Shown here piece after piece: positions 13,624 to 35,082 of a DNA stretch of 64,000 nucleotides. Origin of the DNA: an uncultured Solirubrobacteraceae bacterium (lineage in GTDB: Bacteria; Actinomycetota; Thermoleophilia; Solirubrobacterales; Solirubrobacteraceae); NCBI GenBank assembly GCA_963816955.1, contig CAWFME010000007.1:16883-80882 (forward strand), read 5' to 3'. How positions within the stretch are numbered: the stretch's first letter is position 1; each line of letters begins with the position of its first letter. Made by a program: the position numbers and the translations under genes. The notes under the pieces are model-generated. The model worked only from the letters and a program-made list of their open reading frames with translations, searched no databases and was not told the origin of the DNA.

Positions 13624-15177
13624 ATGTGGCGGCGGGTGGCCGGTGCGAGCCTTCGGCCCGTGCGGCGCGCGCGCGGAGAGCTGGGCCAGACGGCGGTCGA
13701 GTACGGGGGCATCCTGGCGGTGATCGCGGTCGTCTTCGTGGCGCTGTTCGCCACGCCGCTCGGCGACGACGTGTCCTGCACGGCGCAGCGCGCCGTCGCC
13801 CAGGTGCTCGACTCGGACCCGCCCGGGTGTGCCGGCGGCGGGGGCGGGGAGGGGCGGGCGGCCACGGGCGACCCGGACGCGGACACGGACGGCGACGGCG
13901 TCCCGGACGCGGCCGAGCGCGAGGCCGGCACGGACCCGGCGAAGGCCGACAGCGACGGCGACGGGCTCAGCGACCGCGAGGAGCTCGAGCTCGGCACGAA
14001 CCCGACGGCCGTCGACACGGACGGCGACGGCGCGCTCGACGGGCAGGAGCTCGAGGCCGACTCGGATCTGTTCGCGACCGACACGGACGGCGACGGCCAC
14101 CCCGACGGGGACGACGGCGACCCGCTCACCTACGACGGCGGCGCCGACGACGCCGTCGCGGGCTTCGTCTGCGGCGACTCGTCCGCGCTGTTCTGCCCGG
14201 ACGAGGACGCGGGGTCGCGCGGCACTACGGAGTACATCTTCGGCCAGATCGCGAGCGGGCTGCTCGCGCTGGGCGACGTCCGCGACGGCATCGACGCGCT
14301 CGCGAGAGGGAAGTTCGGCGACGCGTTCTGGGCCGCGGTGGGCATCGTCCCCGCCGTCGGCGACGCGGCCAAGATCGGCAAGAAGGTCCGCGACCTCGTC
14401 AAGAGGTTCCCCGGCCGACGCGCGGAGGCCATGGGGGTCATCTTCAAGCTGTTCCCTGAAGGGAAGCTGCGCCAGGTCGCGCTCGACGCGGCGACCGACG
14501 GCGGCTACAGCGCGCTGAAGTCGAAGGGGCTCGGCGACGACGCGATCAGGCGGCTGGCGGAGAAGGGCAACGACCTCCGGCGGCTCGCCGACAACGCGCG
14601 CCTGGGCTCGCGCACGCTCGACCCGACCGAGGCGAAGGCGATCGACGGCGCGGTCGCCCAGCACTGGCCGAGCGCCGCGATGCGCTCGGAGGCCTACGGC
14701 GTCGAGACGGCGCTGGCGGAGCTGCGGCGCAACCCGAACATCGAGATCCTCCACACGGGCCGGCCGGGCCCGGGCAAGCCGGTCAACGGCCCCGACATCG
14801 TCGCCTATGACCGTTCCACGGGGCGGACGATCGTCGTCGAGGCCAAGAACACGGACGGCGGCAAGCCGCTCTCGCGCACGCGGCTTCGCTCCACCGCCGG
14901 CGGGCAGCGGGTCACGCAGACCTCGCCGGACTGGCTGCGCAACAACCCGGAGCGCTACCTGAAGGCGCTGCGCCAGTCGCCCGACGCCGGCGACCGCGAG
15001 GCCGCGCGCCGGCTCGAGGACATCATCGACGACGCCGACCCCTACGACGTCGTGGTCGTCGGCAGCAGGCCGAACGGGCAGGGCGGCTACGGTACGCGCG
15101 TGGACGACGCGGTCGGCGAGATCCGGGCGGGCGGGCAGGTTCAGGACGTGCAGGTCATCGACGTGCAGCGGCCCTAG
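13624..15177 (+). CDS. polymorphic-toxin-like protein: Flp-prepilin-type leader + TSP3 repeats + pre-toxin linker + PD-(D/E)xK nuclease-like C-terminus
   Basis: aa 21-45 G/QTAVEYGGILAVIAVVFVALF give the Flp G-x4-EY motif plus a hydrophobic helix. aa 83-166 hold four or more D-x-D-x-DG-x-x-D repeats. aa 236-254 WAAVGIVPAVGDAAKIGKK are pre-toxin TG-like. aa 355-408 SEAYGVE...GPDIVAYDRSTGRTIVVEAK give the E...PD-x15-E-x-K pattern. Confidence 0.7.
   Translation: MWRRVAGASLRPVRRARGELGQTAVEYGGILAVIAVVFVALFATPLGDDVSCTAQRAVAQVLDSDPPGCAGGGGGEGRAATGDPDADTDGDGVPDAAEREAGTDPAKADSDGDGLSDREELELGTNPTAVDTDGDGALDGQELEADSDLFATDTDGDGHPDGDDGDPLTYDGGADDAVAGFVCGDSSALFCPDEDAGSRGTTEYIFGQIASGLLALGDVRDGIDALARGKFGDAFWAAVGIVPAVGDAAKIGKKVRDLVKRFPGRRAEAMGVIFKLFPEGKLRQVALDAATDGGYSALKSKGLGDDAIRRLAEKGNDLRRLADNARLGSRTLDPTEAKAIDGAVAQHWPSAAMRSEAYGVETALAELRRNPNIEILHTGRPGPGKPVNGPDIVAYDRSTGRTIVVEAKNTDGGKPLSRTRLRSTAGGQRVTQTSPDWLRNNPERYLKALRQSPDAGDREAARRLEDIIDDADPYDVVVVGSRPNGQGGYGTRVDDAVGEIRAGGQVQDVQVIDVQRP
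13870..14121 (+). repeat. in-frame thrombospondin type-3-like calcium-binding repeats inside the toxin gene
   Basis: DPDADTDGDGVPDAAE / DPAKADSDGDGLSDREE / NPTAVDTDGDGALDGQE / FATDTDGDGHPDGDD. Confidence 0.75.
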
Positions 15178-30417: not shown

Positions 30418-31188
30418 ATGACCCCGACGCCGTCACCGGCCCGGATCGCCGTCCTCGACAACGATTCCGGCTTCGTGCAGGTCCTCACCAAGCGGCTCGA
30501 GGCCGCCGACTGGCAGTACCGCGTCCTCGCCTCGCCGGTCCCGCTCGACGTGCTGATCTCGATGCGGCTCAACGCCCTCGTGGTCGACCCTGCCGTGCTC
30601 GGCCCGGCCGCCTGGAGCTACCTCGAGAAGCTCTGCGCCCGGCTCCCGCAGCTCGGCGTCGTCGTGTGCACCGGCCAGTCGACCGTCGCCCAGCGCGTGC
30701 GCGGGCTGCGGCTCGGCGCCGACGACTGGGTCACCAAGCCGTGCCACCCGGAGGAGGTCATCGCACGCGCGGAGGCCGTCATCCGGCGCCGCCGGCGGGC
30801 CGAGATGCGCGCGGACGCCGAGCCCGTGGTGGCCGGCGAGCTGGAGATCCGCCAGGACCAGTTCCAGGCCTTCGCCGCCGGCCGCAACGTGGACCTCACC
30901 CGCCGCGAGTTCGAGCTGATCGCTCTGTTGAGCGGCCTCGGCGGCCAGGTCATCCCGCGCGAGGAGATCTACGAGCGGGTCTGGGGCTACGCGATGGTCC
31001 ACGGGGACCGCTCCGTGGACGTGTTCGTGCGCAAGCTGCGCCAGAAGCTCGAGAAGGTCTCGCCGGACTGGCGCTACATCCACACGCACTTCGGGATCGG
31101 CTACCGGTTCGACCCCGAGCCCGTCGAGGGCAGCGCGGCGGCATTGCCCGCGCCTCACGCCGCGGTCCCCGAGCCCGTCCACGCGTAG
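30418..31188 (+). CDS. OmpR/PhoB-family response regulator (orphan, no adjacent histidine kinase)
   Basis: Receiver domain (IAVLDND, ALVVDPA, VVCTGQ, GADDWVTKP) plus winged-helix output (LTRREFELIALL, VDVFVRKLRQKL, HTHFGIGYRF). Confidence 0.88.
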   Translation: MTPTPSPARIAVLDNDSGFVQVLTKRLEAADWQYRVLASPVPLDVLISMRLNALVVDPAVLGPAAWSYLEKLCARLPQLGVVVCTGQSTVAQRVRGLRLGADDWVTKPCHPEEVIARAEAVIRRRRRAEMRADAEPVVAGELEIRQDQFQAFAAGRNVDLTRREFELIALLSGLGGQVIPREEIYERVWGYAMVHGDRSVDVFVRKLRQKLEKVSPDWRYIHTHFGIGYRFDPEPVEGSAAALPAPHAAVPEPVHA

Positions 31189-31212
31189 CCGCAGCGGGGT
31201 ATCCTCGGCGAC

Positions 31213-31581
31213 GTGGGCCCCGACCGCCGCACGCACCTCCGCAACGTCGCGATCATCGTCCTGCTCGCGGTGGTGGTCTGGCAGGTCCCGGGCGGCGACC
31301 GCGCGGGCTCGACGATCGCCAACCTGCTGTCGCTCATCTTCATCGGCGGCATCCTCTTCCTCGGCTACCGGCTCTACATGGAGAACCGAGAGACCATCTT
31401 CGGCCTCGAGGAGCGCCAGCGGGGCGTGCTCTACGCCGGCGCGGCGCTGATCGCGATCACGCTCGTCGCCACCAGCCGGATGTGGGGCGCCGGCGGCATC
31501 GGCGCGCTCGTGTGGCTGATGATGCTCGGGGCGGGCGTCTACGCCATCGTGGGCGTCTGGCGCGCGTACCGCGAGTACTAG
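31213..31581 (+). CDS. integral membrane protein (4 TM), hypothetical
   Basis: 122 aa with four hydrophobic segments and GC3-rich codons. GTG start. Confidence 0.6.
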   Translation: MGPDRRTHLRNVAIIVLLAVVVWQVPGGDRAGSTIANLLSLIFIGGILFLGYRLYMENRETIFGLEERQRGVLYAGAALIAITLVATSRMWGAGGIGALVWLMMLGAGVYAIVGVWRAYREY

Positions 31582-31637
31582 CCCCCGCTCTGCCCGCCCC
31601 CGCTCGTGCGGTTCCGCGGGTTAGGCGTGGTCAGGCT

Positions 31638-31686
31638 GCCGAGTGGCATCTGAGTCGCGGTATGCGCGACGGAGGTGCCACTCGGC
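31638..31686. other. two-tier perfect hairpin in the AT-richer intergenic region upstream of the Tad-like genes
   Basis: GCCGAGTGGCA (31638-31648) pairs with TGCCACTCGGC (31676-31686). The loop contains a nested GTCGCG-gtatg-CGCGAC hairpin. No U-tract follows. Confidence 0.5.
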
Positions 31687-31785
31687 GCGTCTAGCGGGTC
31701 TCGGTGTCCATTTGGTTGCAGTTTCCTTGCGGACTCGTGACGTTCGCGTCTAGTTCTGTTCTGGTTTTCGCGCGACGGTGGCGCG

Positions 31786-32117
31786 GTGCATTCGGAGAAC
31801 GGACAAGCCGCGGTCGAGCTGGCGGCGCTGTTGCCGTGGGTGGCCGCGGTGCTGCTCGTCGCGTGGCAGCTCGTGGTGGCCGGCGACGCGCACTCCTCGG
31901 CGGCGGTCGCGGCTCGCGCCGCCGCGCGCGCCGCAGCGTCGGTGACGACCCGGCGACCGCCGCACGTGCCCGGCTCCCGCAGCACCTGCGCCACGGGCTG
32001 CGCGTGCGCTCCCGGGCTGACGGCACCGTGTCGGTGTCCGTGCGCGTTCCGGCGCTCGCGGCCGCGCTCGACCTCGGCCGCGTCCGCGCCGAAGCCTCCC
32101 TGGGGGCGATGCCATGA
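31786..32117 (+). pseudogene. TadE-like pseudopilin, apparent -1 frameshift near 31925-31940
   Basis: The frame from GTG 31786 gives (M)HSENGQAAVELAALLPWVAAVLLVAWQLVVAGDAHSSAAVAARAAARAAA. The paralog-like C-terminus SVGDDPATAARARLPQHLRHGLRVRSRADGTVSVSVRVPALAAALDLGRVRAEA lies in the frame ending at TGA 32115-32117. The switch falls in a GCCGCGCGCGCCGC tract. Confidence 0.55.
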
Positions 32118-33136
32118 CCGGCGAGCGCGGCCAGGCCACGGTCGAGCTCGCGGCCCTGCTGCCGTTGCTGGCGGTGATCGCCCTTGCGGCCTACGCGCTG
32201 CTCGCGGGCCTGGCGGCCGGCGAGCAGGCCGGCGTGGCAGCCGAGGCCGGCGCGATCGCGCTGCTCCAAGACCGCGACCCCGTGGCCGCAGCCCGCGCCG
32301 CGCTGTCCGACGGCACGCGCGCGTCGGTGCGCGTGGAGGGCCGCCGAGTCAGCGTCGCCGTACGCCCGCGGGTCCCGCTCGTCGCGCGGCTCCTGCGCAC
32401 GCGGGTCACCGCCGCACGCCGGACCGGAGCCCGCGCCGTGAGCCTCCGTGCCCGTGCTCTCGACTACTTCGTCGAGCCCCGCACGCCTGCTGAGGCCGGC
32501 GCCTACGTCGCTCCAGCACCTGCGGCGCCGGCGGCGCCGCATGCGCAGGCCGCCACGCGGTTCCCGCTGCGGGCGGCGGTGCTCGGCTCGCCTGCCGATG
32601 GAGTGCCGATCGGCGCGCTGCTCGCGAACGCGCTGCGCTCCGCGGCGGGCGCATCGACGGCGGTGCTGGCGGTGTGGGCTCCGGATGTGCGACCGCCGGC
32701 CTTCCGGGGCGGCCCGGCGACGCTGGCCGCGTCACGGCTCGCCGCACGGTTGTCGGCCCGCGGGCTCTCCGCAGCGGGCCGTGGGCGGTTGGCGTGGATG
32801 GCGCTCGACGACCATCCAGTCGCCGCAGCGGTGGCGGCCCGGCGGGCGGCGGGCGCGGTCGATGTCCCGCTCGTGGTCGTGCTGGCGGGCCCGCGCTGCG
32901 ACGTCGTCGAGGGCGTCCTCGCGGAGCAGGACCTCGTGGTCGTCGCCTGCGCCGAGTCGGACGGAGCGCTGGCCCGGCTCGCCGTCGCGGGCTGCGCCAC
33001 GGCGGCGCTCGCCTGCGCGCCTCCGCCGCCCGGCCCGTCGCGCTGGCTCGCTCGCTCCGGCCTCGCCGGCGCTCGCGGGCTCCCCGCCCAGGTCCGTTCG
33101 CTGGTCGGCGCGCTCGGTTCTGAGGCCGCATGGTGA
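32114..33136 (+). CDS. TadE-like pseudopilin with C-terminal degenerate ParA/CpaE(TadZ)-like domain (or two unresolved in-frame genes)
   Basis: N-terminus MTGERGQATVELAALLPLLAVIALAAYALL has the G-x4-E prepilin-like motif. From about aa 109 (in-frame GTG 32438) a Rossmann-like pattern follows (RAAVLGSPADGVPIGALLANAL, AVLAVWAPD, VPLVVVLAGPRCDVV, DLVVVACAESDGALARL). It resembles MinD/ParA topology but lacks a Walker A lysine motif. Confidence 0.55.
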   Translation: MTGERGQATVELAALLPLLAVIALAAYALLAGLAAGEQAGVAAEAGAIALLQDRDPVAAARAALSDGTRASVRVEGRRVSVAVRPRVPLVARLLRTRVTAARRTGARAVSLRARALDYFVEPRTPAEAGAYVAPAPAAPAAPHAQAATRFPLRAAVLGSPADGVPIGALLANALRSAAGASTAVLAVWAPDVRPPAFRGGPATLAASRLAARLSARGLSAAGRGRLAWMALDDHPVAAAVAARRAAGAVDVPLVVVLAGPRCDVVEGVLAEQDLVVVACAESDGALARLAVAGCATAALACAPPPPGPSRWLARSGLAGARGLPAQVRSLVGALGSEAAW

Positions 33137-34407
33137 GCATGCGCGGGCAGGCGTCGATCGTGCTCGTCGGCGGGCTCGCCGCGATCCTCGTCGGAGCGCT
33201 CGTGCTCGGGATGGTGGCCCGTGCGCTGGGACGCGAGGGCGCGGCTCAGCGCGCGGCGGACCTGTCGGCGCTCGCGGGCGCCCGGGCGATGCGGGAGGCG
33301 TATCCGCGGCTGTTCGAGCCGGCGATGTTCGACGGCCGCCCGAACCCGCGGCATCTCGACCGGGCGGCGTATCTCGAGCTGGGGAGCGCCGCCGCTCGCG
33401 CCGCGGCGCGCGGGAACGGCACCGTGGTGAGCGAGCTGGCGTTCCCGGACGCCTCGTCGTTCGCGCCGGTGCGGATTCGCGTCGCGGTGCGCGAGCGGAT
33501 CGCGATCGAGCGCGGCCGGGAGCGCCGCGCGGTCGGCGTGGGGGCGAGCGCCGTCGCGGAGCTCTCGCCGCTCGGGCCGGGAGGATTGCCGGCCGGCGGC
33601 GGCTACGACGGCCCGCTGGAGCACCGCCAGGGCAAGCCGATGCGGCCGGACGTCGCGCGGGCGTTCGACCGGATGGAGCGTGCCGCCCGCGCGGACGGCG
33701 TGTCGCTGTTGATCGCCAGCGCGTACCGCTCCGACGCCGAGCAAGAGATCCTCTGGCGCCGCAACCCGGACCCCCGCTGGGTCGCCCGGCCCGGCGAGTC
33801 GCTGCACCGTCACGGCACCGAGCTCGACCTCGGCCCGCCCGCGGCTCATGCGTGGCTCGCGGCCCATGCGGAGGCGTTCCACTTCGTCCAGCGCTATCCC
33901 CACGAGAAATGGCATTACGGCTACACGCTCAACGCGCGATCCACGCCCCGGGGCGCGGGAGACGGTCGCGCGATCCCGAGCTTCGTGCCCGGGCGCTTCG
34001 CACCGGCGCTGGCGCGCGCGGCGCAGCGCTGGAACGTGTCCGCCGCGCTGCTCGCGGCGCAGCTGTACGCGGAGAGCAACTTCAATCCGTTCGCGACCAG
34101 CCCTGTGGGCGCGCAGGGCATCGCGCAGTTCATGCCGGAGACCGCTCGCGCGATGGGGCTCGACGATCCCTTCGACGCACCCGAGGCGATCGATGCCCAG
34201 GCCCGGCTGATGCGCGACCTGCTGCGGCGCTTCGCCGCCGTCCCGCTCGCGCTGGCCGCGTACAACGCCGGCCCCGGGCCGGTGGAGGCGTGCGGCTGCG
34301 TGCCGCCGTACCCCGAGACGCGCGGCTACGTCGCCCGCATCCTCGGGCTGCTCGGCGGGATGGGTGAGCTCGGCCGCGGCGAGCTCGTGGTGAGGCTTGT
34401 GAAGTGA
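33130..34407 (+). CDS. TadG-like N-terminal anchor fused to VanY-type (M15B) D,D-carboxypeptidase and SLT lytic transglycosylase domains
   Basis: aa 5-55 RGQASIVLVGGLAAILVGALVLG...AAQRAADLSALAGARA are Tad/TadG-like. aa 195-265 SAYRS..Q, ESLHRHGTELDL and HEKWHYGY carry the M15B zinc and catalytic motifs. aa 300-385 LYAESNFNP, GAQGIAQFMP and AAYNAGPG are the SLT motifs with the catalytic Glu. Confidence 0.8.
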   Translation: MVSMRGQASIVLVGGLAAILVGALVLGMVARALGREGAAQRAADLSALAGARAMREAYPRLFEPAMFDGRPNPRHLDRAAYLELGSAAARAAARGNGTVVSELAFPDASSFAPVRIRVAVRERIAIERGRERRAVGVGASAVAELSPLGPGGLPAGGGYDGPLEHRQGKPMRPDVARAFDRMERAARADGVSLLIASAYRSDAEQEILWRRNPDPRWVARPGESLHRHGTELDLGPPAAHAWLAAHAEAFHFVQRYPHEKWHYGYTLNARSTPRGAGDGRAIPSFVPGRFAPALARAAQRWNVSAALLAAQLYAESNFNPFATSPVGAQGIAQFMPETARAMGLDDPFDAPEAIDAQARLMRDLLRRFAAVPLALAAYNAGPGPVEACGCVPPYPETRGYVARILGLLGGMGELGRGELVVRLVK

Positions 34408-34432
34408 TCAGCAGGGGCGTAGCATTCGTCAC

Positions 34433-34552
34433 ATGGCCGCGCTGTTCGCCATCGGCGGCGTCGTCGGGATCTGCATCCTCGGCTACTTCTTCGGCGCCGA
34501 GTCGAGGCCGGACTTCCTCGACCCGCGTCACAAGACCGGCCGCTGGATCTGA
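34433..34552 (+). CDS. small membrane protein (39 aa), hypothetical
   Basis: ATG 34433 to TGA 34550-34552: MAALFAIGGVVGICILGYFFGAESRPDFLDPRHKTGRWI. One TM segment and GC3-rich codons. Too short for the ORF track. Confidence 0.4.
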   Translation: MAALFAIGGVVGICILGYFFGAESRPDFLDPRHKTGRWI

Positions 34553-34575
34553 GCCGACCGCCGGCCCCTCCTATC

Positions 34576-35082
34576 TTGTCGTGCGGGATGCCCGATCCCG
34601 TCGTCATCACGTATCTGGAGCTCGCGCCGGAGGACCCGGTCGTCGCGCCGTCGCGGCCCGCGCCGGCCGGCTTCTCGACCCGCGAGGTACACGACCACGC
34701 CATCAACCGGGAGCTCTACCGCCGCGTCGGCGCGGACTACCAGTGGGTCGACCGCCTGACCTGGAACGACGAGCGCTGGGCCGGCTACGCCGCCCGGGTC
34801 GAGACCCACGTCGTCGAGCTGGACGGCCGCACCGCGGGCTACTACGAGATCGAGCTCGACTCGACGGGGTCGGCGAAGATCGCGCTGTTCGGCCTGCTCG
34901 AGGAGTTCCAAGGCATCGGCCTCGGCGGCCACGCCCTGACCGCCGCGCTCACCCGCGCCCGCGAGCTGCGCCCGCGCGTGTGGCTGACGACGTGCACGCT
35001 CGACGGCCCGTACGCGCTGCCGAACTACCACGCCCGCGGGATGCGGTCGTTCCGCACCGCGACGCTGCCGGCGCCGGTCTGA
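34576..35082 (+). CDS. GNAT family N-acetyltransferase
   Basis: LLEEFQGIGLGGHALTAAL matches the acetyl-CoA-binding Q/R-x-x-G-x-G/A motif. 168 aa (alternative start ATG 34588). Confidence 0.8.
   Translation: MSCGMPDPVVITYLELAPEDPVVAPSRPAPAGFSTREVHDHAINRELYRRVGADYQWVDRLTWNDERWAGYAARVETHVVELDGRTAGYYEIELDSTGSAKIALFGLLEEFQGIGLGGHALTAALTRARELRPRVWLTTCTLDGPYALPNYHARGMRSFRTATLPAPV

Follow-up and report, generated by a model that had tools for sequence, protein, structure and literature searches.

A TadG-related protein with two peptidoglycan-cutting domains in Solirubrobacteraceae: a candidate wall-opening subunit of a Tad pilus

Introduction

Can a pilus bring its own enzymes for cutting through the cell wall? 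This question is raised by a single gene in the genome of an uncultured Solirubrobacteraceae bacterium (Actinomycetota, Thermoleophilia, Solirubrobacterales; assembly GCA_963816955.1). The gene lies in a stretch of 64,000 nucleotides of contig CAWFME010000007.1 (positions 16,883 to 80,882, forward strand), which we call the window and number from its first nucleotide. It encodes one protein, referred to here as the fusion, that joins a pilin-like N-terminal part to a VanY-type (M15B) peptidase domain and an SLT lytic transglycosylase domain. A first-pass annotation, made from the sequence alone, described it as a TadG-like anchor carrying two enzymes, and suggested a dedicated wall-breaching factor for the passage of a pilus or a toxin.

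In order to appreciate what such a protein might do, it helps to recall what is known of the large subunit of Tad pili. CpaL/TadG corresponds to PilK/GspK; it lacks Glu at position 5 and begins with a minor-pilin-like domain (PMC13533445). Its middle ~470 residues are dispensable, and assembly requires the strand at its extreme C-terminus, which comes back to the N-terminal sheet (PMC13533445). Together TadE, TadF and TadG form the tip complex of the Tad pilus, in which the large TadG serves as backbone and displays a modular domain at its C-terminus (PMC12075869).

Our analysis leads us to think it likely, though well short of certain, that the fusion is a minor-pilin-like subunit of this TadG/CpaL type, by which the producer opens its own wall to let a Tad filament pass. 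Judged from its sequence, the usual replaceable middle module, an adhesin or a vWA domain in the known TadG proteins, has probably been replaced by an M15B peptidase and an SLT transglycosylase. Below we present the evidence for this, the points that weigh against it and the alternatives.

Results

Two intact wall-cutting domains in one gene

The open reading frame (ORF) of the fusion (33130-34407, forward strand) encodes 425 amino acids (aa) and is open throughout. It has the signature of a coding sequence, with a G+C content of 0.92 at third and 0.56 at second codon positions (GC3 and GC2), in a window and a genome of ~75% G+C. Translation may instead begin at GTG 33133, which overlaps the stop codon of the upstream gene as GTGA; the same arrangement is found in L089, a relative (91% identical) that is used for several comparisons below. 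Both enzyme domains score well above their Pfam cut-offs: VanY (PF02557) has 58.1 bits against 25 at fusion residues 171-265, and SLT (PF01464) has 68.7 bits against 21.3 at residues 295-386. This confirms the fusion as a real gene with VanY/M15B and SLT domains, and all three parts that had been proposed do sit in one polypeptide.

The conservation of the protein was read from an alignment with 45 orthologs from named genomes (46 sequences, 49-74% identity). In the M15B domain S197 and R200 (SAYRS), H226 and D233 (S-x-H-x-x-G-x-E-x-D) and E259, W261 and H262 (E-x-W-H) are all invariant. The M15B set is complete: H226 and D233 (His-x6-Asp) are zinc ligands along with the distal H262, E259 is catalytic, and S197/R200 bind substrate. 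The catalytic E315-S316 of the SLT domain is likewise invariant, as are G330-P336 (GIAQFMP) and, within AYNAG, Y378, A380 and G381, with N379 kept in at least 90% of the sequences. The invariance of all these motifs across the alignment far exceeds chance. Every diagnostic motif that the first-pass annotation had named is present, and its own misgiving, that the catalytic residues might turn out not to be conserved, is laid to rest by residues that stay invariant in an alignment reaching down to 49% identity.

Comparisons with solved structures point the same way. In profile searches of the Protein Data Bank (PDB) the M15B domain matches VanY, VanY-B and LdcB at 7e-11 to 6e-9 and, more weakly, L-Ala-D-Glu endopeptidases at 3e-5 to 4e-4; Foldseek assigns it a VanY-B/LdcB fold (6a6a and 5hnm at 1e-6). 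The best profile match of the SLT domain is the SLT domain of a phage tape-measure protein (9b45, 6e-17), LtgA/Slt70 are matched as well, and Foldseek gives an LtgA/Slt fold (5o1j at 2e-6). The two domains thus have their fold and catalytic residues in common with VanY-B/LdcB (5hnm, 6a6a, 4mph, 4ox3) and Slt70/LtgA (1qsa, 5o1j). These enzymes, however, have a single function and are free or simply anchored, and neither kind is fused to the other or to a pilin-like part.

We considered an origin from a phage or prophage lysin and rejected it. Phage records match the fusion by the SLT domain alone, mostly in tape-measure or Slt-like genes. No phage record spans more than about one third of the protein, none of the 480 matching records covers 80% of it with the combined architecture, and the neighbourhood of the gene is chromosomal housekeeping.

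A pilin-like domain and a C-terminal strand

The label of an anchor proved too small for the N-terminal part. What we find is a whole TadG/CpaL-type minor-pilin-like domain, paired with a conserved strand at the C-terminus, and an enzyme-bearing minor pilin is a better picture than an anchored enzyme. Homology of the N-terminus to the TadG-related family is supported by sequence profiles, although this sequence alone fails the Pfam Tad threshold. Over its first ~150 residues the fusion aligns with the N-terminal part of a second, TadG-related family from the genome, which does pass PF13400 (hhalign 97.6%, E 4.5e-12). PF13400 is also present in several orthologs of the fusion (precomputed Pfam), the helix of the fusion contains the QRAADL-x-AL-x-GA motif of this family, and NCBIfam TIGR03816 (Rv3654c TadE-like) gives a sub-threshold E of 7.5e-5. 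The TadG-like N-terminus of the first-pass annotation is upheld by family-level homology and fold prediction, but not by the Pfam cut-off on this sequence.

Several features of the domain are strictly kept. In all 46 sequences the hydrophobic stretch is immediately preceded by Gly6-Gln7, D44 and L45 do not vary either, and at position +5 after the Gly there is V, L, A or some other non-acidic residue, never Glu. At the far end of the protein, behind a variable Gly/Ala linker, 43 sequences have the C-terminus x-E-V-R-L-V-x; L423 is invariant here, and V421, R422 and V424 are kept in at least 90%.

An AlphaFold2 model built on the ortholog alignment (mean predicted local distance difference test, pLDDT, of 84.8) agrees with this division. 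Residues ~1-150 are predicted to fold as a pilin-like lollipop, that is, a helix with an alpha/beta head: a helix of 58 residues (5-62), then a head made of another helix (78-95) and three strands (99-104, 115-128 and 131-147), with pLDDT mostly 80-97 in the head. Flexible linkers (150-156 and 269-279) flank the M15B domain (164-265), the all-helical SLT domain follows (288-410), and the model closes with a five-residue strand (419-423, pLDDT 91).

The last gene of a conserved operon

The fusion closes a conserved operon, in which it follows two TadE-like genes and a gene of ~230 aa that we call gene X (Table 1). Stop and start codons overlap within the module, as ATGA at 32114-32117 and as ATGGTGA at 33130. 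L089 has the same order, in four separate and intact genes of 110, 110, 233 and 426 aa. Among the 65 related loci with enough upstream sequence for the count, 54 have two ORFs with a G/Q-A-x-V-E leader (the slash marks the leader junction) and ~105 residues after the Gly ahead of the fusion. Unlike the fusion, both upstream TadE-like proteins of the window carry Glu at +5.

In many loci the space from the TadE-like genes to the fusion is occupied by an ORF of ~200-230 aa that ends at the fusion start, which is the place of gene X. Pfam gives no match for five members of gene X. Some distant orthologs have a degenerate ParA/MinD-like P-loop, G-x-x-R-C-G-T-T-T (RCGTTT), that others have lost (L026, L029, L040 and L069 were compared). 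An iterated search with hidden Markov models (HMMs) linked 8 of 28 sequences and did not join the sequence groups. The motif hints that gene X could be a decayed protein of ParA/MinD/TadZ type.

Around this module the window encodes, upstream, pstS-pstC-(pstA)-pstB, phoU, an OmpR-type regulator and then a 122-aa membrane protein, and, downstream, a 39-aa membrane ORF, a GNAT acetyltransferase and an inositol monophosphatase. The gene of the 122-aa protein is separated from the first TadE-like gene by a 204-bp spacer of lower G+C, and it recurs upstream of the fusion ortholog in 58 of the 80 related loci searched with tblastn, across the order. Pfam and NCBIfam searches assign it no family. The idea that it is a short prepilin peptidase was dropped as unsupported, given this lack of a match and an A24 peptidase of the genome that is found on contig 9 only. 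The 39-aa ORF (MAALFAIGGVVGICILGYFFGAESRPDFLDPRHKTGRWI) differs from its L089 counterpart by one residue and lacks a pilin-type leader. A scan of 31100-34700 for sigma-70 promoters and intrinsic terminators found none, and such a scan is uninformative for a high-G+C actinobacterium.

Table 1. Features of the fusion and its surroundings; positions are those of the window unless a contig is named
Feature	Position	Strand	Basis and remarks
Membrane protein of 122 aa, no family assigned, module membership uncertain	31213..31581	+	~2 kb upstream of fusion; 122 aa in L089 too
First TadE-like minor-pilin gene, leader ...NG/QAAVE	31786..32117	+	Pfam TadE PF07811, E 0.0015 on N-terminal part
Second TadE-like minor-pilin gene, leader ...RG/QATVE	32114..32441	+	Leader motif; native stop TGA 32439-32441
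Gene X, ~232 aa, fast-evolving, position kept	32438..33136	+	Separate 233-aa gene in L089, starting VSLRARALDYF
Fusion: leader, Gly6-Gln7 and long hydrophobic-to-amphipathic helix (pilin alpha-1), no Glu at +5	33130..33315	+	Residues 1-62
Fusion: predicted globular pilin-like head, helix 78-95 on three-stranded sheet	33316..33570	+	Residues 63-147; AlphaFold2, within hhalign match
Fusion: VanY-type (MEROPS M15B) zinc peptidase domain	33619..33924	+	Residues 164-265; PF02557, invariant residues, PDB/Foldseek matches
Fusion: SLT (GH23) lytic transglycosylase domain	33991..34359	+	Residues 288-410; PF01464, E315-S316, PDB/Foldseek matches
Fusion: extreme C-terminal beta-strand	34384..34398	+	Residues 419-423; conservation, AlphaFold2, likeness to CpaL/TadG strand (PMC13533445)
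Single-helix membrane ORF of 39 aa, module membership uncertain	34433..34552	+	Coding-type GC3 phase; called gene in L089
TadG-related protein with muramidase	G000:C4:904932-906362	-	450 aa from internal Met; TadA and two TadE-like genes 2-3 kb away

A second TadG-related protein with a glycan-cutting module

Is the fusion the only protein of its kind in this genome? A TadG-related protein encoded on contig 4 (Table 1) lies inside a complete tad locus, which comprises two TadE-like genes, TadA, TadB, a Flp pilin and a vWA protein. Its name at NCBI is 'pilus assembly protein TadG-related' and, unlike the fusion, it passes PF13400 by itself, at 31 bits. Its N-terminal ~145 residues are homologous to those of the fusion, and it too has a glycan-cutting module: the C-terminal ~130 residues match the fungal muramidases PDB 8b2h and 8b2e (profile E 6e-11; Foldseek template-modelling score 0.71). 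This muramidase follows an internal V-R-L-I strand (residues 304-308), which resembles the terminal V-R-L-V strand of the fusion.

That said, the enzyme domains of the two proteins are unrelated in sequence. BLASTP of one against the other gives nothing significant, and the shared N-terminus is visible by profile-profile comparison only. We therefore rejected the notion that they are full paralogs, as the N-terminal domain alone is shared. In the middle of the contig-4 protein there is a HYNHLHVD (H-x-H) motif that is reminiscent of LAS metallopeptidases, as a sequence motif only. An LAS metallopeptidase at this place was also set aside; Foldseek finds no match, the model has low confidence there and the motif is all that speaks in favour. 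So, judged from sequence and fold matches, both TadG-type proteins of the genome carry glycan-cutting modules, one of them inside a tad locus.

Other pilin-type genes were seen in the genome. Two large proteins begin with a complete Flp-pilin-type leader and helix, one in the window (13624-15177, G000:C7:30566; ~500 aa, G/QTAVEYGGILAVIAV) and the other on contig 5 (G000:C5:648861, reverse strand; 384 aa, G/QASLEYVGLLAVV). An orphan Flp gene is found at G000:C4:522234.

A family of the Thermoleophilia

Searches of the protein database return thousands of matches to the fusion, and the best 120, none of them below 70% identity, all carry both VanY and SLT. When 1.84 billion representatives were searched exhaustively with HMMER, 263 clusters at 50% identity were obtained (E <= 1e-30). 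A scan with one genome per species finds at least 559 species-level loci, which are labelled almost wholly as Thermoleophilia lineages (Solirubrobacterales, Solirubrobacteraceae, Thermoleophilaceae and Conexibacteraceae are named) or as generic Actinomycetota, and in one case as Chloroflexia. Solirubrobacter deserti and Conexibacter arvalis are cultured species with the gene. Full-length matches occur in the class of the window only, and elsewhere the SLT part alone is matched (401 genomes, spread over the phylum). The architecture is widespread within one class, the Thermoleophilia, and absent outside it.

Within Solirubrobacterales the gene is nearly universal and present in a single copy per genome. 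In two genomes of the same family (G311:C1:1575311-1576612 and G366:C12:124216-125349) the ortholog matches in two separate pieces, the pilin-like part with VanY and then SLT, which points to a frameshift or to a natural splitting of the fusion. The first-pass annotation had named, as an outcome that would tell against it, an architecture that is common and unlinked to tad genes. It is indeed common within the class, but it is tied to TadE-like genes, although never to an adjacent motor.

Co-occurrence with a Tad motor

Where, then, might the motor be? The five T2SSE genes of the genome are all on other contigs: PilB and PilT on contig 9, a PilT-type gene on contig 5 and two of TadA type, one on contig 2 and one on contig 4. 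The Tad locus on contig 2 (G000:C2:42613-49295) encodes CpaB, a response regulator, a histidine kinase, TadA, TadB and TadC, and no pilin or minor-pilin gene was found in it. This locus directly adjoins the cell-division cluster mraZ-rsmH-ftsL-PBP (PBP, penicillin-binding protein).

Co-occurrence was assessed in 31 other Thermoleophilia genomes, 17 with the fusion and 14 without. All 17 fusion-bearing genomes carry a TadA that is 59-74% identical to that of contig 2. The other 14 consist of seven without any TadA, six with a TadA only 52-57% identical to the contig-2 type, and a fragmentary genome with a partial TadA of that type. With phylogeny ignored, the Fisher test for fusion and TadA gives 7e-8 for the contig-2 type and 0.0013 for any TadA. 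Four absences of both fusion and TadA occur inside families that otherwise bear the fusion (G045, G145, G300 and G015). From this pattern we infer that the module in the window supplies minor pilins for a machine of the contig-2 type.

Discussion

How the fusion may work

The interpretation that we started from survives in part. The two enzymes and the link to tad-type genes hold, the supposed rarity, the motor link and the plain anchor had to be corrected, and no support was found for a role in toxin passage. What can be put in its place?

We propose that the N-terminal helix of the fusion would insert in the membrane, with the rest of the protein outside. Lacking Glu at +5, like PilK, GspK and CpaL, it would be the apical subunit and, by analogy, would form with the two Glu5-bearing TadE-like proteins a complex that primes a Tad (type IVc) filament. 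The terminal strand may, again by analogy, fold back onto the pilin-like sheet of the same protein. Such a complex would form at the membrane, under a thick wall and with no outer membrane beyond it, so the enzymes of the apical subunit would be positioned where the filament passes and could open the wall for it. There the SLT transglycosylase would cut the glycan strands, and the M15B domain would trim stem peptides, most likely the terminal D-Ala, preventing the gap from being cross-linked again. The motor would be encoded elsewhere, most likely by the pilin-less CpaB...TadA-TadB-TadC locus on contig 2.

A number of results weigh against this proposal. Taken alone, the fusion sequence stays below the cut-off of Tad PF13400 (16.1 bits against 22.3, E 0.014, residues 6-53). 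No T2SSE ATPase is encoded within 8 kb of the fusion in any of the 80 related loci, and no Tad platform protein, Flp pilin or prepilin peptidase within that distance either. Physical linkage to a Tad motor was found neither in the window nor in the whole genome nor in those loci. The link to the motor rests on co-occurrence among related genomes, which is inflated by shared ancestry. The sole recognisable A24 prepilin peptidase of the genome (G000:C9:172838-173146, reverse strand) is ~11 kb from the type IVa PilB/PilT genes and, being the only one, it would have to serve all substrates of Flp/TadE type. Furthermore, the M15B domain has carboxypeptidases as its nearest solved relatives, and such enzymes do not open a wall by themselves. 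The claim that the protein would cut both glycan strands and stem peptides is in keeping with two intact domains, but enzymes that trim the ends of stem peptides do not cut cross-links, so cutting stem peptides need not mean breaching the wall. Finally, the two upstream TadE-like genes carry indels in this assembly, a frameshift in one and a read-through into gene X in the other, and we return to these below.

Alternative explanations

Some of these points would suit a wall enzyme that has nothing to do with pili. The fusion could be a membrane-anchored, bifunctional peptidoglycan remodeller for growth, division or maturation, which has retained a pseudopilin-type signal-anchor, the TadE-like proteins being relics or partners outside any filament. 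The gene is never adjacent to tadA/B/C, its single copy and near-universal presence in Solirubrobacterales are what one expects of a core wall enzyme, and M15B carboxypeptidases such as LdcB are housekeeping enzymes. In the closest relatives, moreover, it keeps a stable neighbourhood of pstSCAB, phoU and the regulator on one side and GNAT and inositol monophosphatase on the other. This pst context, however, is restricted to close relatives, whereas the block of two TadE-like genes, gene X and fusion is kept much further. A plain anchor needs neither a pilin-like domain of 150 residues nor an invariant Gly-Gln nor a conserved terminal strand, and across the order the two TadE-like genes retain intact G/Q-A-x-V-E leaders. 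The fusion is also never found without TadA in our genome sample, and the two are lost jointly in the four genomes named above. On balance we regard a pilus-independent role as unlikely.

If the fusion does tip a pilus, is it the wall of the producer that is cut or that of another cell? The hydrolases could, on contact, attack the walls of neighbouring bacteria to kill or prey on them, to release DNA or to bring about cell-cell fusion, after the fashion of the Kil tips of Myxococcus. In Myxococcus, Tad tips with exchangeable TadG/KilN modules do kill on contact, and the tip clusters lie apart from the motor genes (PMC12075869). The enzymes would be the outermost module of a subunit that lacks Glu5 and is hence apical, a Flp-pilin-headed protein is also encoded in the window, as seen from its leader motif, and among solved structures the SLT domain is best matched by that of a phage tape-measure protein. 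However, no immunity gene is evident beside the fusion, and each genome has one conserved copy in place of variable or polymorphic tips. An M15B carboxypeptidase with an SLT domain would be weak from the outside of a Gram-positive wall, and a Gram-negative wall would be out of its reach. The Thermoleophilia are not known to be predators. An offensive role therefore strikes us as rather improbable, and opening of the producer's own wall remains the reading that we prefer.

The indels upstream of the fusion bear on this strain in particular. Aligned with the DNA of L089, the first TadE-like gene lacks one base near 31938 and is split over two frames; the GC3 frame switches inside it at ~31900-31960, and the L089 ortholog is intact at 110 aa. 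The second has one extra base near 32414, which puts its native TGA out of frame and fuses it into the frame of gene X as a 340-aa ORF ending at 33136. Both indels sit in G+C-rich runs (GCCGC...), and they could be either assembly errors or genuine lesions. In the latter case this strain would be unable to form the complex. At the junction of the TadE-like gene and gene X, L089 (4225-4300) has extra sequence resembling a direct repeat of ~30-45 bp, which is absent from 32405-32445 of the window. That the module is decaying here, with an intact fusion that no longer works with a filament, would agree with two single-base indels within 500 bp and with the frame switch, but we think it very doubtful, as runs of this kind are typical sites of assembly errors and the fusion ORF is intact with every catalytic residue present.

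Comparison with known systems

The closest parallels of the proposed subunit are TadG/CpaL of Caulobacter crescentus and KilN of Myxococcus xanthus (PMC13533445, PMC12075869, PMC12607857). Like the fusion, these have a hydrophobic helix of PF13400 type without Glu at +5, a small pilin-like head, a large replaceable module and a conserved beta-strand at the extreme C-terminus, and they are encoded with two small Glu5-bearing genes of TadE/TadF type. The tip clusters of Myxococcus also resemble our locus in that the gene set is away from the motor genes. The differences are that the module of the fusion is enzymatic (M15B and SLT), where theirs is an adhesin or of vWA type, that its host has no outer membrane or secretin, and that an extra gene, X, precedes the large subunit. 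They are known as pilus subunits, whereas the fusion is known from sequence and fold prediction.

Wall-cutting enzymes that serve larger machines are familiar from elsewhere. For example, Gram-positive conjugation systems use bifunctional hydrolases, namely CwlT, PrgK and TraG of pIP501, in which the peptidase is of NlpC/P60 or CHAP type. Like the fusion, these combine a domain that cuts glycans with a peptidase domain, both on a membrane anchor, although the peptidase of the fusion is M15B. Lytic transglycosylases of the VirB1, FlgJ and EtgA type are specialised hydrolases of envelope-spanning machines, according to Koraimann (2003) as relayed in PMC12307814. All of these are dedicated peptidoglycan cutters that are encoded with a transport or filament apparatus, and in this they resemble the fusion. 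They are, however, separate accessory proteins on ordinary Sec anchors, whereas the fusion builds its enzymes into a pilin-like subunit.

For pili, a precedent is the LytF hydrolase of Streptococcus sanguinis, which promotes the extrusion of the Com pilus through the Gram-positive wall (PMC13192262). It shows that hydrolase-aided pilus extrusion has a precedent in Gram-positive species, and like the fusion it is a peptidoglycan hydrolase proposed to aid the passage of a type IV filament. LytF differs in being a free secreted enzyme (Bsp and CHAP) that is induced with competence; it is not fused to a pilin, nor encoded with minor pilins.

Significance

How type IV-class filaments cross the thick wall in bacteria of Gram-positive type is an unsettled matter, and according to a structural paper of 2025 neither a peptidoglycan hydrolase nor a lytic transglycosylase has been reported for Tad pili (PMC12307814). 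The fusion family is a concrete and testable candidate. Its wall-cutting activity would be built into the apical subunit that primes the filament (for the placement see PMC13533445 and PMC12075869), and not be that of a recruited helper. If this is true, the idea of an 'adaptable tip' for Tad pili would widen from adhesins and prey recognition to enzymatic cargo.

A bolder version can be imagined, which we offer as speculation with the odds against it. In actinobacteria with much wall and no outer membrane, the apical TadG-type subunit could act as an enzymatic 'drill head' that cuts a channel in the producer's own wall and whose tip, once outside, also acts on neighbours, with the hydrolases being swapped between lineages, as with M15B and SLT in the fusion and a muramidase at the contig-4 locus. 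Were this to be the case, wall-cutting tips would be a general answer, as yet unrecognised, for the type IVc pili of monoderm bacteria.

Another consequence concerns the organisms themselves. The occurrence of the family in the two cultured species makes genetic and biochemical work feasible. For the Thermoleophilia, a class that is abundant in soil, our results suggest a possible function for a gene that is conserved and has so far been unstudied.

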